Of a stretch of 64,000 bases of DNA, positions 1-8,501 are shown piece by piece; position 1 is the first letter of the stretch, and every line of letters starts with the position of its first letter. The notes beneath the pieces are model-generated. The model was given only the letters and a program-made list of their open reading frames with translations, was not told where the DNA came from and did not search any database. The position numbers and the translations under genes are program-made. Source of the DNA: Sedimentisphaerales bacterium (lineage in GTDB: Bacteria; Planctomycetota; Phycisphaerae; Sedimentisphaerales; SM23-30); the NCBI GenBank assembly GCA_963666285.1, contig OY762711.1; one strand, 5' to 3'.

Positions 1-1
1 A

Positions 2-571
2 ATCCGTAATAAGGGTTACGCAATCGGCATGACTAATTATCTCATTTATGCGCGGCGCAAAAGAAGGATCGACATTAAGAATAATAGTATCGAAACCATT
101 GGCCGCCTCATTGATTTGAGGTATCAAAGAGGCAGCCGTTCCTTCGGTTTCAGCGATGACAATCGGGTAATCAAAAGGATCACCGTTGAATACTTCAAGC
201 AGAGTAACCTCGTATTGATCGATACTGACCAACGCTACCCGTTCATCTCTCTGTGACTGATATTCGGCATAGTCATGCACCTTTGAGAAAGAATCTCTCA
301 AATGATAGGCCAGTACGATCTCACCCTGAAGGCTGTCATCCAGATCAAAGTCATAATCGCTGCGTCCTGTATTTTCACCGGCACCATCATTAAAATCTGC
401 CGAATAATCAGTAATATCATTCTGCACTGGCAATTCATTTCCAGACGAATTATCCGCTGGCGGAGTTCGCCTGTCAGAATTACCTTCTCTTTGTTTATCA
501 AGCTGCGAAAGGAACAGATGCGCTATGGATTCTATCCCTCTTTGTTTCTTTTTGTTATTATGCTCATCCAT
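2..571 (-). CDS. Hypothetical protein running off the window edge; degenerate MinD/FlhG/ParA-like C-terminal part
   Basis: Not in the ORF track. Manual translation from ATG at 571 is open to the edge: MDEHNNKKKQRGIESIAHLFLSQLDKQRE...FDTIILNVDPSFAPRINEIISHADCVTLITD. The last segment resembles the Walker B/AD-x-V region of MinD-family ATPases; no Walker A visible. Confidence 0.75.
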   Translation of the reverse strand, partial: MDEHNNKKKQRGIESIAHLFLSQLDKQREGNSDRRTPPADNSSGNELPVQNDITDYSADFNDGAGENTGRSDYDFDLDDSLQGEIVLAYHLRDSFSKVHDYAEYQSQRDERVALVSIDQYEVTLLEVFNGDPFDYPIVIAETEGTAASLIPQINEAANGFDTIILNVDPSFAPRINEIISHADCVTLITD

Positions 572-770
572 GGTTCGCCCCTCAGGTAATATAATACCGT
601 TCAAAATGTACTCCAAACATTTTGACAGAACACTCAATGCCTTATATTTAAATGCAGACAAACCCTCAAACCGTCAGAACTATCCTGACAATTTAAGGGG
701 ACATATTATCACATCTAATTTTATTATATTTTAATAGAAAATAAACAGCAATAAAAATGCATGCCAATCT

Positions 771-828: not shown

Positions 829-2055
829 TTAAACAAGCTCAACAAGAGAGTTTAGTTCACCAAATTCATTTTCAACTACTTTACCATTATGCGGATCCTG
901 CTGCCAACGACCGTCAACAACGTATCTGTACTGATAGCAACCGGAATCAAGATTCATCCGTGTAAACCAGCGACCGTTTTCAGACTTTTCCAAAGGCGTC
1001 TCTTCAGGATTCCAGCCATTAAACTCACCTGCAATTGCCACACTTTGAGCATGGGGATACATAGCAACAAAAGTAACCTGATCACCATCCTGTTTTACGC
1101 CATAGAAATCAGCTATCTTCTGCTCAATACTCTTAGGCAATTTTGGCTCGAATTTATTAGCAGATTCAGATGGAGCAGCTCCAATAAGTTCTTTTGATTC
1201 AACTAAAAGCTCATTTGCAGACTTGCTGATTTCCTTGAGTTGTTTTTCAACAGTCTCAACGCTTTTAGCATAGTTATCCTTCTGCAAACCGCCTGCTTCT
1301 ACTACTTCATTTGCCAATGCAACAAAGTCTTTCATCCCTTTACTGCTAGGATCGTACTCCGTAATAGGTTGGCCAAAACTTGCAGCTTCTTTCAGCTTTG
1401 TATTGAAGTTAATAATAGTCTTGAACATTAAATCAGAATAGTTTCTGCGGAGCTCATTGAGTATTTCACGAGCAAGCTTAGTACGCACATCGTACATACT
1501 GCCAAGAACTTTCACCTGGATATCCTGTTTACACTGCTTCTTTAGAACATCAAGGGTTTCAAGCTGCTTTTGCAAACCATGCATAGCAAAATACCCGGTT
1601 TCAACAGGAATAATAACTTCATCACTGGCTCGCAAAGCATTAAAAGTGAGAATACCTACGCCAGGAGGACAATCAATAATAATGTAGTCATACCCCTGGG
1701 CGTCGCGTTCAAAAATACTCTTAAGCAGGTTTTCTCTGCCTTCCATTTCGGTAAGCTGAGGCTCTAATGCCGCCAGTTCAATTCCGGCCGGTGCCAGGTC
1801 AAAATTCTGAGCAATCTGCCAGTTAATATTTTTTAGAGTAACCGGTTTATCAGAATTCGCAGATATAAGCACGTCATAAATATTCTGCTCAACCTGATCT
1901 TCCGGAACAGCCAGACCAACAGCGCAATGAGTCTGAGGGTCCATGTCAATAAGCAGAGTTTTGTGCCCCAATGAAGCCAGACATGCTGCCAGATTCATTG
2001 AGATAGTTGTCTTACCACATCCACCTTTTTGATTGATTACAGAAATACAACGCAT
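829..2055 (-). CDS. parA: ParA/Soj-family ATPase fused to a C-terminal glycogen-binding (CBM48/AMPK-beta-like) domain
   Basis: Deviant Walker A QKGGCGKTT, IDMDPQ, Walker B IIIDCPP, Soj-like MYDVRTKL and KLKEAASFG. C-terminus AGEFNGW...YQYRYVVDGRW...NEFGELNS is typical of CBM48. Confidence 0.9.
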   Translation of the reverse strand: MRCISVINQKGGCGKTTISMNLAACLASLGHKTLLIDMDPQTHCAVGLAVPEDQVEQNIYDVLISANSDKPVTLKNINWQIAQNFDLAPAGIELAALEPQLTEMEGRENLLKSIFERDAQGYDYIIIDCPPGVGILTFNALRASDEVIIPVETGYFAMHGLQKQLETLDVLKKQCKQDIQVKVLGSMYDVRTKLAREILNELRRNYSDLMFKTIINFNTKLKEAASFGQPITEYDPSSKGMKDFVALANEVVEAGGLQKDNYAKSVETVEKQLKEISKSANELLVESKELIGAAPSESANKFEPKLPKSIEQKIADFYGVKQDGDQVTFVAMYPHAQSVAIAGEFNGWNPEETPLEKSENGRWFTRMNLDSGCYQYRYVVDGRWQQDPHNGKVVENEFGELNSLVELV

Positions 2056-2428
2056 AAAGTCACCTCTCTATTAGCTCGGAGGTCCAATAGATTATATAAA
2101 ACAGTATAATCCACTTACATTACATTAAAAACACTGTCACTACTTCTCAAAGCAATAACGCAAAGAGACACAGTTAAAAATGAATGGAAATCGACCTGAA
2201 AGAAATGAAGCAATAGATATACCTCGGCCAAATACTGAATCAGATATATCCTCATATCTAAAGCAGTAACAGGGAGGTTATAAGATATTGCTATTCCCTT
2301 ATCCATGGGAAACAAATCAATCCATTTATCTTACTGTACTAACAAAGCTCCGCCTCGCACAGCACAGTCAGCCCCAAATTTCTGGCTGATACTTGTACCA
2401 GCACCAGTTTAAGGCTTTTCATTCGAAT

Positions 2429-3230: not shown

Positions 3231-3493
3231 GTTTTACTCCTGACTGGTAATGTATCTTTCTTATTATTATAAAGTTATAAATATTAATACCTTAGTTTAT
3301 CAGATAATTCAAGAGCATAAATTAGCAAAAAACGGAAAAAAAGCAAGTTTTCTTTCCTAAGTTATTAAATAATAATAATTTCTGTCAAATAATACAGTTC
3401 AGGATCCCATTATCCAGAAAATTCATAGACTTTTATTAATTATTTGTTAGCATATAATTACAAATCATTAGTGGAAATGAGTTTTTCGCTGGT

Positions 3494-3566
3494 GCCAACT
3501 TAGCTCAGTTGGTAGAGCACGGCTTTCGTAAAGCCGCGGTCGCGGGTTCGACTCCCGCAGTTGGCT
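3494..3566 (+). tRNA. tRNA-Thr (CGT)
   Basis: Acceptor stem GCCAACT/AGTTGGC, D arm GCTC-AGTTGGTA-GAGC, anticodon arm CGGCT-TTCGTAA-AGCCG, T loop TTCGACT; CCA not encoded. Confidence 0.97.
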
Positions 3567-3631
3567 ATCATTTTTATCTTTCTTCGGGTTAAATAAAGTA
3601 CAATCGGAATTAATATTGAAAGATCTTGGCA

Positions 3632-4551: not shown

Positions 4552-5010
4552 CTATTGGGACGGTGGCATCGGACGCCCCTTAAGCTGTGCAACAATATCA
4601 CGGGCTGAGTCAAGTTTAACAGCCAATCTCTTCAATACTCTTTCAGCAATACAACCTTTTTCACGTAAAATTGCTAACACAAGGTATTCAGTACCAACTT
4701 TGCGGTCATTAAATAATTCAGCTTCTTCCAAGGCATATGAGATTACTTTTTTGAAATGCGGTGTACCTGGCAGGCGACCCAGTACCCAGGATTCCTCCAT
4801 GCTTTTTCTGGCAAATTCATGGACCATACTTTCTGCAAGAGGAAAAGTAACACCAAACCTATCCAAAACCTGGGCCCCCAAACCCATTCCATACTCAAGA
4901 ATACCAAGCAAAACATGCTCGGTACCAATATATTCCTGGTTTTGCTGTCTGGCTTTCTGGGCGGCCAGTTTAAGAACAACCTTTGATGACTCTGAAAGAT
5001 GCTGGTACAT
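4552..5010 (-). CDS. Stand-alone Clp N-terminal domain protein (two Clp repeats, no AAA+ module)
   Basis: YIGTEHVLLGIL and KVGTEYLVLAIL repeats; ORF ends after 152 aa. Confidence 0.85.
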   Translation of the reverse strand: MYQHLSESSKVVLKLAAQKARQQNQEYIGTEHVLLGILEYGMGLGAQVLDRFGVTFPLAESMVHEFARKSMEESWVLGRLPGTPHFKKVISYALEEAELFNDRKVGTEYLVLAILREKGCIAERVLKRLAVKLDSARDIVAQLKGRPMPPSQ

Positions 5011-5211
5011 AATAAAACTTTTAAACTTAATATTGAAATTTATCTCTACTGTATTACCAATCGGTAAATATTAGTAAATGATATTAAAAAAATATAAACA
5101 TTATGTTAAAACAGCAAAAAATATACTAACCAGAATGTTAAAAAGAACCAGACAAACAGCCTCTGGGTATCAGGGAAATCTATTATTGCCTGAATGTTTA
5201 CCAGATTATGA

Positions 5212-6927
5212 TCAAGCTAATGCCTGTTTGATTTCGGTGAGTAATTGCTCAACTTTGAATGGCTTATATAAAACAGCACTTAAACCTTCACGATTCGCCC
5301 TGACAATTGAATGATTTGGGTCATAACCAAAACCTGTCATTAGAATCACAGAAGTTGCATCATTCTTTTCTTTAGCAGAAGCAAATACATCATAACCGGA
5401 TGCGCCAGGCATCTTAATATCGGAAATAACCAGATCGTAATTATTCTGACCGATAAGGGTAATAGCTTCACTGCCATTAGCAGCGATATCAACAATACTA
5501 CCTTGATCTGTCAAAACACTAGCAATAGTTTCACGAATAAATATTTCATCATCTACAACAAGAACACGCTTATTCCATAGTTCTTCAGCCTTGATATTTT
5601 CAGCACCTTTAATATCGAAAATACCTCTCGGCCCAGATTGCACATCTTTAACTGCGGTTTTGATCTCAACTGCACAATCAACCACACCCTGAAGTTTATG
5701 GCGAAGGTCGTCATGACCAATATATTCCTCGAGAAGACTAGACACCTCGGTAATAATTTTGTTAACAGGCTTGGAAATCGAAATATTGAGAGTATCAGCA
5801 GTCTGACCGGTAGTATGATGTCTTTCAACTACCATAAGGTCAAGAATATTAATAGCAATAGCTATATAACGGGCAAAGATCTCTGCCATTTGACGAGACT
5901 CTTCGGTAAGAACATTTGAATGATGGCTTTCTACATTAAATGTGCCAATGATTTTATCATGCAACCTAAGAGGAACAGTAAGAGAAGACTCGCCGCCATC
6001 AAGCCCAGATAGATAATGAGGGTCTGTTTCAGGATGATTGCACAGATAGCTGCGGCCGGTTGCAGCAACATATCCGGTTATACCGTTATTTTCCGAACTG
6101 GCAAATATCTCCTGACAGGAATCGCCGGGAAGTCCCTGGCTAAAAAGTACTTCAAGCTTATTGCTTTCAGGATGAAGTAATCTGATACAAAAATGATCAA
6201 AGTAAAGCAGATCTTTTGCATATTTTACTATTTTATTCTCAAGCAGACTAATACGCTGCTCAACATTCATGTTTGAAAAATTCTCTGCTTCCAACCTGAC
6301 AAGTTCATGACCGGCTTTGTCAATAGCATTGATGCGCATCTGCAGTTTTCTACCGGCAGTTGCATCAATCACGACAGTTGTTGTCTGAATAAGCTTTCCG
6401 GCTTCATCTAAAACCGGGGCAGCAGACATTTCATAATAACTTCCGGTCATGTCGTCGAAAAAAGAATATTTTCTTTTTCGCTTGCTAATGGTCAGCAAAT
6501 CTTCTTTGGAGGCAGCGGCAAGCTCTTTATCATAAAACTCAAATATTTTTTTGTTATGATTCGAGATCGCATTTTTTACAGCATTAGTTAAATCATTAAC
6601 TTTCTGATTCGCCCAAAGGATAGTGCCATCCCGATTTGTAACACATACACCTTCGCCGATATTGTTTAACAATTCTTCAGCCTGACGGCTTAATAGTAAA
6701 TTCTCCAGCATGGAACAGCCCTGAGGAGAAATAACAACCGCTTCAAACTCGCCTTCATTTACCGCTTTAATCAGTTCATTAAAAGAACCAACGTATGTAC
6801 AATTCCAGTCAGAAATATTACTAATAAATGCCGGTAAAGACCCATTCTCATTTTGAGATTCGGAGTTATGATCAAGAATGATGATATTCTTTCCCTTTGC
6901 TTCTGATTTATATGCTTCGCTCATCAA
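5212..6927 (-). CDS. PAS-GAF-receiver domain response regulator
   Basis: PAS (NIGEGVCVTNRDGTILWAN), GAF (GITGYVAATG...SLTVPLRLHDKIIGTFNVES), C-terminal REC (VLVVDDE, DIKMP, MTGFG, KPF). Confidence 0.88.
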   Translation of the reverse strand: MMSEAYKSEAKGKNIIILDHNSESQNENGSLPAFISNISDWNCTYVGSFNELIKAVNEGEFEAVVISPQGCSMLENLLLSRQAEELLNNIGEGVCVTNRDGTILWANQKVNDLTNAVKNAISNHNKKIFEFYDKELAAASKEDLLTISKRKRKYSFFDDMTGSYYEMSAAPVLDEAGKLIQTTTVVIDATAGRKLQMRINAIDKAGHELVRLEAENFSNMNVEQRISLLENKIVKYAKDLLYFDHFCIRLLHPESNKLEVLFSQGLPGDSCQEIFASSENNGITGYVAATGRSYLCNHPETDPHYLSGLDGGESSLTVPLRLHDKIIGTFNVESHHSNVLTEESRQMAEIFARYIAIAINILDLMVVERHHTTGQTADTLNISISKPVNKIITEVSSLLEEYIGHDDLRHKLQGVVDCAVEIKTAVKDVQSGPRGIFDIKGAENIKAEELWNKRVLVVDDEIFIRETIASVLTDQGSIVDIAANGSEAITLIGQNNYDLVISDIKMPGASGYDVFASAKEKNDATSVILMTGFGYDPNHSIVRANREGLSAVLYKPFKVEQLLTEIKQALA

Positions 6928-7090
6928 AAAACCTCTAATAAACAGGTTTGGAATTTAAAGTATTAAGAGCCGAGCTGGCAAAATGAGCAATCAGGCATAT
7001 TCTTTCTCGAACTGCTATATCTCTTTACAGCAGCAAAAAATGCAGCCAGGCTGACTTTACCTTCGCCACTATTATCTTTTCCCCACTATA

Positions 7091-7119
7091 GTTATACAAA
7101 AAAACAAAAAAAATGTCAA
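7091..7119 (-). promoter_or_regulatory. Putative sigma70 promoter
   Basis: TTGACA-N17-TATAAC upstream of the response regulator gene. Confidence 0.65.
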
Positions 7120-7178
7120 ACTTATTCACAAGTTCGACATTTTTTTTCAAAAGTTATTTACGACTTGCATTCAGGTTA

Positions 7179-8282
7179 TCACTCCTGAGACCAACTATTT
7201 TTAGGATGAGCGTTATCATAAACTTCCTTCATCCTGCTAGTTGTAAGATGAGTGTAAATCTGAGTTGTGCTAAGCGACCTGTGTCCAAGTAGTTCCTGAA
7301 CCACTCTCAGGTCAGCACCATTGTTAAGCATGTGGGTCGCAAAACTGTGCCGGAGGGTGTGAGGGCTGATTCGTGGGTCAAGACCAGCTTGACGCAGGTA
7401 CTTGTCCAATTTTCGGCGAACAGAACGAGTACTCAGCCTTTGTCCATGTTTATTTATCAGTAGAGCTTGAGGATCGAAGCTGCTTTTACGGGGATCGGCG
7501 TCCCTAAAAGTAAGATATCTTTGAATCGCCTGTAGAGCCGAAGGTCCAATCGGGGCAATTCTTTCTTTCTTACCTTTACCACGTAGATGCAAAACTTCCC
7601 CTAGGAAATCGACATCTGTCAGATTCAATGAAACCAACTCACTTACACGTAATCCACTACTGTAAAGTGTTTCCAAAATTGCTCTGTCACGAGCACCCAA
7701 GAGGGTATTTGTGTCCGGGCAACTAAGTAGTTTCTGAATCTGCTCCGGTTCAAGGCACCTAGGCAATCTTTTTTCCTGCCTTGGTGTACGAATAGCACTT
7801 ACGGGACTTGTCTCTACATATCCACGGCGAGAGAGGTACTTATAAAAGCTCCTCAATGTGGCCAGTTTTCTTGCCGAAGATGTTTTCGAGTAATTCTTTT
7901 CACTAAGATGAGCTAAAAACGTCCTGATAGTATTTACGTTCATCTCTAGCAAAACATTTGTCATTCCCGAGCCGCCTTCAGCATAAACTGAAGAGTCGGC
8001 ATAAGAAGCACCATCCGCCTGGGCCTGATCCTGCCAGGTATGAGGATTATCATTAAGATAATCAACAAACTGTCTTAGATCGGCACTATAACACTTGACC
8101 GTATGTGCTGAAAAATGACGCTCATACTGCAAATACTCCAGGAACTCCCTGATTGGGGCAATCCCCAGAATTTTGTCCTGAACCGGCAGCGTACTTACAT
8201 CCGATGTACTCCGCTCACCAGCTCCGGCTTGAAAGCCCAATTCGGGACTTTCGAATTTATTATCTAACTTATTTTCCAGCAT
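7179..8282 (-). CDS. xerC: Tyrosine recombinase XerC
   Basis: SAHTVKCYSADL, RKLATLRSFYKYL, RDRAILETLYSSGLRVSEL, GKGKKER, SPHTLRHSFATH, LLGH..LSTTQIYTH (full catalytic set); start uncertain (ATG 8282 or TTG 8309). Confidence 0.88.
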   Translation of the reverse strand: MLENKLDNKFESPELGFQAGAGERSTSDVSTLPVQDKILGIAPIREFLEYLQYERHFSAHTVKCYSADLRQFVDYLNDNPHTWQDQAQADGASYADSSVYAEGGSGMTNVLLEMNVNTIRTFLAHLSEKNYSKTSSARKLATLRSFYKYLSRRGYVETSPVSAIRTPRQEKRLPRCLEPEQIQKLLSCPDTNTLLGARDRAILETLYSSGLRVSELVSLNLTDVDFLGEVLHLRGKGKKERIAPIGPSALQAIQRYLTFRDADPRKSSFDPQALLINKHGQRLSTRSVRRKLDKYLRQAGLDPRISPHTLRHSFATHMLNNGADLRVVQELLGHRSLSTTQIYTHLTTSRMKEVYDNAHPKNSWSQE

Positions 8283-8501
8283 AACAAGACTCTCACGGCG
8301 AAAATCCAATACTTATCGTAGCTCTTGCGTTCAGCGTCCTTACACAATCAAATCGCGGGTCACACGATCAAAAAGTTTTACGCAATAGCTTCAACTCCAT
8401 GACAAAGCCGTCCAATCAGGCATAAGAAACTCCGTTGTCTTATACCTACTCTGTCAACACTATATAATAACCCGGCCCACGCCAGGTCCGTTAAATGGAA
8501 C

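Follow-up and report, generated by a model that had tools for sequence, protein, structure and literature searches.

The window analysed here is a stretch of 64,000 nucleotides from contig OY762711.1 of a Sedimentisphaerales bacterium (assembly GCA_963666285.1; class Phycisphaerae). It encodes a protein of 408 amino acids in which a Soj-type ATPase is followed by a long helix and an AMPK-beta-like CBM48 module, and the analysis confirmed that this ParA-CBM48 fusion is real. The gene is accompanied by a partner gene (Table 1), and we tentatively read the pair, at somewhat less than an even chance, as an accessory two-gene ParA module that would tether a glycogen-like alpha-glucan store inside the cell to the nucleoid in an ATP-gated manner. 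The sequence comparisons show an intact ATPase, basic residues on the DNA face, an aromatic sugar site and a conserved partner.

Table 1. Features of the fusion gene and its partner gene, with positions counted from the first nucleotide of the window.
Feature	Position	Strand	Remarks
Partner gene, 5' part (602 aa in whole)	1..571	-	leaves the window, reaching genome C1:5438763
Start of partner domain without P-loop, FlhG-derived by profile comparison (residues 78-258)	1..340	-	
Partner N-terminal amphipathic helix (residues 11-22)	506..541	-	class-wide conserved motif; candidate ParA-contact element
Hairpin of 17 pairs with weak T tail	663..699	-	within the 257-nt gap between fusion and partner genes
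ParA-CBM48 fusion gene (408 aa)	829..2055	-	ORF without internal stops; Pfam matches; homologues
AMPK-beta-like CBM48 (residues 318-407)	835..1104	-	W348, R377, W384, F398, E400, N402
Linker (residues 253-310)	1126..1299	-	helix on to residue 290, then disorder; mean pairwise identity 23%
Soj/ParA ATPase domain (residues 1-252)	1300..2055	-	deviant Walker A K10/K15, D39-Q41, Walker B D128
DNA-face residues R191, K220, K222 of the ATPase domain	within 1300..2055	-	
Ribosome-binding-like purine run	2061..2068	-	5 nt ahead of the start codon; read from the sequence

Elsewhere in the window, a tRNA-like sequence was recognized by eye at 3490-3570 between a lipoprotein gene and a prepilin-type gene. 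A single minus-strand run at 4552-8309 encodes a protein of 152 aa with a Clp N-terminal domain standing alone, together with a PAS-GAF-receiver protein and a XerC-like recombinase.

The domain composition was established using Pfam models, which matched the fusion beyond their cut-offs at residues 1-181 (AAA_31, E 1e-52), 336-406 (AMPK1_CBM, E 7e-13) and 318-384 (CBM_48, E 1e-8). This was the profile comparison proposed with the original prediction of an intact Soj-type ATPase fused to a CBM48/AMPK-beta-like module, and every motif quoted in that prediction was found. The AlphaFold model of the fusion (pLDDT 87.6, built from 30 sequences) comprises a Soj fold, a single helix at residues 239-290 in agreement with the predicted helical linker, a disordered segment at 291-308 and a beta-sandwich. 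The solved structures nearest to the ATPase half are chromosomal ParA/Soj proteins, and those nearest to the C-terminal domain are the glycogen-binding modules of AMPK beta (E 1e-9 for the domain alone, 7e-15 as a profile); all 22 solved relatives of the CBM belong to AMPK or to glucan enzymes. The residues N8, K10, K15, D37, D39, Q41 and D128 were invariant in 30 of 30 sequences, and the PriB1-type Soj/ParA features are present, i.e., the Asn before Walker A, both Walker A lysines, the DxDxQ sensor and Walker B. At least 120 homologues were listed, each covering 99-100% of the protein with both domains, and those with names belong to Sedimentisphaerales, Phycisphaerae or Planctomycetota. An assembly chimera or a frameshift as the origin of the fusion was ruled out because all listed homologues are full length and contain both domains. 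The contig search for the fusion gave 8 full-length loci among the 42 matches listed, and a promoter scan gave 8 sites against 7.1 expected, too few to be informative.

Retention of basic residues at the Soj DNA-binding positions was also borne out: in the alignment to the solved Soj structures 8RAY and 1WCV, R191 and K220 occupy the positions of the basic residues R189 and R218, in what we take to be the B. subtilis Soj numbering. The role of these two Soj residues is covered in the part available of PMC3778016. R191 was kept in 54 of 60 genomes and in all 106 shorter, more distant forms, while position 220 had Lys in 54 of the 60 and either Lys or Arg in each of the 106. However, R191 was kept in merely 43 of the 144 proteins of the 50%-cluster set and is gone in five of six members of family f5, and nucleoid binding may therefore be limited to part of the family.

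The ATPase had been regarded as a self-contained orphan. This is wrong for the source genome, where a conserved gene of FlhG ancestry, as judged from profile comparison, lies immediately downstream and is cut by the window edge. The partner protein had no Pfam or NCBIfam match and is predicted by modeling to consist of an N-terminal helix and a folded domain (residues 78-258), with a long stretch of acidic disorder between the latter and an alpha/beta domain at the C-terminus. The best fold match of the first domain was FlhG (4rz2; Foldseek E 8e-7, Z 12.9, rmsd 3.5, 173 residues aligned). In HHalign the class-wide partner profile scored 97% (E 2e-11) against the MinD-family gene located downstream of flhA in the same genome, versus only 5% against the fused ParA, which argues that the dead-ATPase domain of the partner is descended from FlhG.

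Among the 60 loci, which are those of the genomes whose fusion was recovered from their loci, the partner was directly downstream of the fusion in 36 (35 identified by script and one, G068, by inspection, in six-frame ORFs). No partner was detected next to the fusion in families f2, f101, f110 and f111, in which a genome-wide search with the partner profile gave at most one weaker match per genome; these weaker matches were taken to be FlhG. The mean column identity of the partner was 22%. For the complex of an ATP-bound ParA dimer with partner residues 1-258 a score of 0.58 was predicted versus 0.03 for the best of three controls, a level at which a pass is wrong more often than right unless the prior likelihood is high. 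The runs agreed in at least 50% of contacts and the partner pLDDT was at least 72. The mark used was attained by 116 of 157 solved pairs and by 2 of 215 mismatched pairs, and scores up to 0.60 comprised merely 18 solved pairs together with both passing mismatches. Likeness to solved ParA/MinD dimers may explain the score, and the prediction gives weak support to a contact between fusion and partner. A ParB-like basic activator peptide in the partner was considered and dropped because it occurs only in some members and in G094, the class-wide motif being a hydrophobic helix without a fixed Arg.

The last 150 residues form an alpha/beta domain in the model of the whole partner, with a strand pattern that we take to recall an REase core. 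Searches of Pfam, the PDB sequences and the Atlas gave no match to this C-terminal domain, and it was not matched by NucS_C either; one of the 25 rows in its alignment is a neighbouring deaminase, and the absence of a match does not speak against an REase.

The possibility had to be weighed that the fusion is the chromosomal ParA working with ParB-parS, with the glucan as a modulator. The source genome has parB and two perfect parS by dnaN/gyrB without an adjacent parA, it contains merely two Soj-like genes, and the nearest solved folds of the ATPase are those of chromosomal proteins. However, the other Soj-like gene (345 aa) was kept in all 46 genomes without the fusion, the fusion itself is lost from whole families, and in family f100, which is without the 345-aa gene, a separate parA was directly beside parB in five of five genomes checked, in addition to the fusion. 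The fusion is thus most likely an extra ParA and not the partner of ParB, and the chromosomal role is very improbable. The 345-aa gene was present in 85 of 100 carriers and absent in the 12 carriers of f100. As originally predicted, neither parB nor parS lies nearby: the closest perfect parS pair and parB are about 300 kb from the fusion, near the GC-skew minimum, and no parS within two mismatches of what we take to be the consensus was found near the fusion gene. On the distributional evidence of the second ParA in 46 of 46 non-carriers, the outcome considered damaging to the original prediction, i.e., a canonical ParA paired with ParB, is probably not the case.

Two observations on these genes may be recorded separately. 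In the source genome parB (C1:5742253-5743179) and the 345-aa ParA (C1:2050422-2051459) are on far sides of the chromosome from each other; the latter has an acidic disordered tail and is the likely ParB partner. In f100 (L147-L151) the class-typical second ParA is absent, and a divergent short parA is located directly upstream of parB.

The taxonomic distribution of the fusion was determined for 146 Phycisphaerae genomes of at least 90% completeness. A fusion-type CBM match was obtained in 98 of these, one per genome; the ParA fusion was confirmed directly in 59, one was cut by a contig end, and the remaining ones were full-length matches in a long frame. With two more genomes containing degenerate CBMs, the fusion was counted in 100 of 146 genomes as a single-copy gene. 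It is nearly all-or-none per family and has been lost from whole families, with carriers making up all of f2 (15/15), f104 (20/20) and f100 (12/12), none of f99 (0/20), f108 (0/4) and f3 (0/3), and 5 of 21 in f102. In a FastTree phylogeny of 116 ParA domains the 62 class members formed a single clade (support 0.996), in which each multi-member family was one group save f4, whose degenerate member G269 falls elsewhere; deep nodes were weak. Among class members the ATPase had a mean identity of 54% and the CBM one of 48%. Outside the class, a clear fusion was found in 1 of 191 sampled Planctomycetota, and shorter, more distant forms occur, to judge from the few that bear names, in Omnitrophota, Myxococcota, Deltaproteobacteria and Nitrospirota. 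Stages of decay were also seen: ParA and partner without the CBM (G387, L224), a CBM short of one tryptophan (G425, L225), and a CBM lacking both tryptophans, with no match for the partner (G269, L210).

The fusion in Phycisphaerae looks vertically inherited, as a housekeeping accessory gene and not as a mobile defence system, because it is single copy, its tree follows the families, its sugar site is invariant and no defence neighbours recur. This bears on the function previously proposed for the architecture. In the passages available of their 2026 preprint (bioRxiv 10.64898/2026.10.19.760177), Li, Burroughs and Aravind catalogue a "CBM-containing system" of ParA with AMPK1_CBM (clade ConB5), including a variant that adds a fast-evolving, inactive ParA and an inactive REase, and immunity is inferred there computationally from sporadic spread and rapid CBM divergence. 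Since the architecture is already catalogued, the fusion is a member of a described kind; the statement that no characterized example is known still agrees with our literature searches, in which no experimentally characterised ParA-CBM protein was found.

According to the immune interpretation, as given in those passages, the CBM would sense an infection-related carbohydrate or its depletion and ParA multimers would coat nucleic acid. By the preprint's description, the likeness to ConB5 includes the AMPK1_CBM at the C-terminus of ParA and an adjacent inactive ParA-like protein, here an FlhG/MinD fold without a P-loop, so that the partner matches the inactive ParA/REase variant in outline; it is also fast-evolving, as its column identity illustrates, and the fusion is patchy across phyla (1 of 191 other Planctomycetota, plus other phyla). 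In contrast to the preprint's account, the dead domain is by our comparison FlhG-derived and an extra C-terminal domain resides within the same gene, inheritance appears vertical and single-copy, and a rapidly diverging CBM with sporadic spread was not found within the class. Further points against immunity are the presence in 100 of 146 genomes, nearly all-or-none by family, the single groups formed in the ParA tree by multi-member families save f4, and a CBM that is barely more variable than the ATPase (48% vs. 54%) with an invariant sugar site. Using PADLOC, 9 of 236 neighbour proteins from 33 loci were matched, two of them clear methylase/restriction genes, a count that stands without a genome-wide baseline and derives from crude gene calls with ORFs miscalled in high-GC loci. 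No recurring system was detected among the 33 loci, and the fusion protein itself had no match. We consider the immune role improbable: the data argue against the published immune reading for Phycisphaerae, and they support the glycogen reading in part.

How far the ligand is glycogen was evaluated from the residues of the sugar site. W348, R377 and W384 were invariant in 60 of 60 genomes, and all 106 of the shorter, more distant forms retain W348, W384 and an Arg or Lys at 377. These residues align with W100, K126 (a conservative change) and W133 of AMPK beta, the nearest solved relative (4Y0G, 1Z0M); the counterparts of its G147 and N150 are likewise conserved. The fused module differs from that of AMPK by Arg for K126, Glu for T148 and Phe or Tyr for L146, and in being joined to a P-loop ATPase instead of a kinase complex. 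According to the part available of PMC6274970, W100 and K126 of AMPK are required for glycogen binding and T148D abolishes it. Residue 400, at the Thr148 position, is Glu or Asp in 57 of 60 genomes (Glu400 in the source protein); the predicted sugar site thus stands as regards its aromatic residues, but it is acidic where AMPK has Thr148. The short, distant forms mostly have Gly at 400, so that the position may be tolerant to change. The Lys-to-Arg plus Thr-to-Glu pair is typical of fused CBMs, with 53 of 67 distinct domains having it; full-length stand-alone CBMs most often show the Lys/Thr form, and the three stand-alone CBMs adjoining glucan genes keep Lys and Thr at the equivalents of 377 and 400.

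Other arrangements of the module were encountered in the same searches. In two fusion-free f3 genomes (L201:3215-9644, L202) a stand-alone CBM48 in a 109-aa frame heads an operon with a phosphorylase, GT5 and a GH13 enzyme, and small stand-alone CBM genes similar to these are found in many genomes of the class. The protein P0123 (1812 aa) has no ParA domain but was matched 18 times by the CBM portion of the profile, i.e., it is a long tandem CBM48 array.

Among the glucan genes of the source genome are a GT4-GH57 pair and a GH57-GT5 fusion, along with those for two glucan phosphorylases and a debranching enzyme; neither glgC nor a cytoplasmic-looking glgB was found in it. Co-occurrence with glg genes had been suggested as a check on the original prediction. 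None of the 146 genomes yielded glgC, and the source genome has only a putative synthase, GT4; GT4 was present in 89 of 100 carriers vs. 24 of 46 non-carriers. In the part available of PMC11046441, GT4-GH57-GH133 sets are possible, unproven glycogen routes, and what GT4 contributes to the making of glycogen is called unclear. Pfam detection of GT5 was divergence-sensitive (53 of 146 only), and the genome's own GT4 was used as query instead. GH57 was found in 90 of 100 carriers vs. 37 of 46 non-carriers and phosphorylase in 87 of 100 vs. 44 of 46. At least one of GT4, GH57 and phosphorylase occurred in 97 of 100 carriers, a figure that fails to discriminate because a glucan marker is likewise present in 45 of the 46 non-carriers. 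Within f102 the GT4 gene was present in 6 of 21 genomes only and all five carriers are among those six; in f99, 19 of 20 genomes have GT4 and none the fusion. Two GT4-negative carriers that were tested both have a true GlgB. The fusion adjoins a glucan gene in one inspected locus only (G413, L174), where the pair is beside a GT4 gene and the C-terminal part of the CBM site is changed. No report of glycogen granules in Phycisphaerae was found in the literature.

Genomes G238, G339 and G370 (98-100% complete) are carriers that keep the full sugar site and gave no matches for GT4, GH57, phosphorylase, GT5 or debranching enzyme; G238 and G370 have no GH13 at all, and the single GH13 match of G339 fits no NCBIfam family (the marker set consisted of these five and GH13). 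Carriers lacking glycogen synthesis genes, the finding named beforehand as contrary to the proposal, were thus encountered in 3 of 100 cases for the markers tested, while the other 97 have a marker. The intact site in these three genomes, together with the Lys-to-Arg plus Thr-to-Glu pair that marks fused CBMs, would suit a cargo-positioning ParA with a CBM directed at a ligand that is not the glycogen of the cell itself, for instance short maltodextrins, a different glycan or a protein complex bearing sugars. We consider this quite unlikely, since the tryptophan clamp fits alpha-glucan binders, as do the solved relatives (22 of 22), position 400 is perhaps tolerant, and recent pathway loss could account for the three marker-free genomes. 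The proposal of a glycogen tether or segregation device consequently retains the intact ATPase, the DNA face and the aromatic sugar site in its favor, and has against it the marker-free carriers, the missing glgC and the acidic residue 400; the glycogen link is partly supported and weaker than first supposed.

Apart from the fusion, the combination of no glgC anywhere with widespread GT4 (113 of 146 genomes) and GH57 (127 of 146) is a candidate class-wide ADP-glucose-independent glucan route. The GH57-GT5 gene of the source genome encodes a glycogen-synthase-like fusion of 918 aa at C1:5067407-5070163 (L075:1407-4160); a GH57-GT5-like frame of 940 aa is present in G381, and several f2 genomes have GT5 domains within frames of roughly 1850 aa.

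Given the partner's descent from FlhG and the way flhA accompanies the fusion, a sugar switch for flagellar motility or cell polarity is a serious rival, even though we rate it as fairly unlikely. The CBM would sense the stored glucan, as it does in AMPK, and the dead ATPase of FlhG origin would pass the signal of the ParA on to the placement or number of flagella, with no transport involved. The partner domain fits this in its HHalign score (97%) and its fold match to 4rz2. The gene flhA, present in 94 of 100 carriers vs. 22 of 46 non-carriers, tracks the fusion at least as well as GT4 does: the five flhA-positive genomes of f102 are exactly its five carriers, f3 and G401 are without both, and the three glycogen-marker-negative carriers are all flhA-positive. 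Retention of ParA and partner without the CBM in G387 also favors it. On the other hand, flhA occurs without the fusion in f108 (4/4) and f99 (16/20), six f100 carriers had no flhA match (their assemblies are fragmented and 90-95% complete), no partner was detected next to the fusion in f2, f101, f110 and f111, and no inspected fusion locus is inside a flagellar cluster. CheW was found in merely 58 of 100 carriers, on which ground positioning of chemotaxis arrays was ruled out. The genomes are moreover kin and not independent, and both the flhA and the GT4 pattern rest on a handful of loss events.

For the tether, which remains our preferred reading, a mechanism can be sketched. By analogy with Soj, ATP would bring about ParA dimerisation and thereby non-specific DNA binding. 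The dimer would present two CBMs and could hence grip the glucan by avidity. Contact of the partner's N-terminal helix or its dead FlhG-like domain with the dimer might, more speculatively, cause release, and release would spread the glucan along the nucleoid or bias it to one daughter or to the flagellated pole. Such a tether could benefit the cell because glycogen condensates shift the nucleoid and the division site in Escherichia coli (PMC12706056, in the part available).

Compared with Soj/ParA of ParABS (8RAY, 1WCV, 6IUB), the fusion shares the fold (TM 0.91 on target length), the Walker motifs and basic residues at the R189/R218 positions, but it has an extra helix, a CBM and its own partner, and is 300 kb from parB-parS. 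McdA-McdB, as described in the part available of PMC13052382, likewise pairs a ParA-type ATPase having nucleoid-binding residues with a dedicated, poorly conserved, disorder-rich partner; there the partner binds the cargo, whereas here the putative cargo domain is on the ATPase itself and the partner is a pseudo-ATPase. In that respect the fusion would be closer to the PHB-granule tethers PhaM, PhaF and PhaH treated in the same source, in that a single protein could bind a storage polymer and, non-specifically, DNA, and it would act as a switchable PhaM-type tether rather than like McdAB.

No machinery for placing glycogen was described in the literature searched, and the available text of a 2025 review of bacterial organelle positioning makes no mention of glycogen. 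A small protein that unites a nucleoid-binding ATPase with a glycogen-type module makes glycogen placement testable in vitro. The comparative data set two predictions against each other, namely an immune sensor, as in the preprint, and a housekeeping role suggested by the inheritance, and the FlhG ancestry of the partner with the flagella co-occurrence adds a motility link absent from the preprint passages available. In its boldest form, which we regard as unlikely, the ParA grips a storage polysaccharide and, via the FlhG-derived pseudo-ATPase, places or partitions the carbon reserve relative to nucleoid and flagellated pole, so that the motile daughter inherits fuel. If true, such a polysaccharide-partitioning ParA would overturn, for this class, the interpretation of the ParA-CBM family as immune systems.
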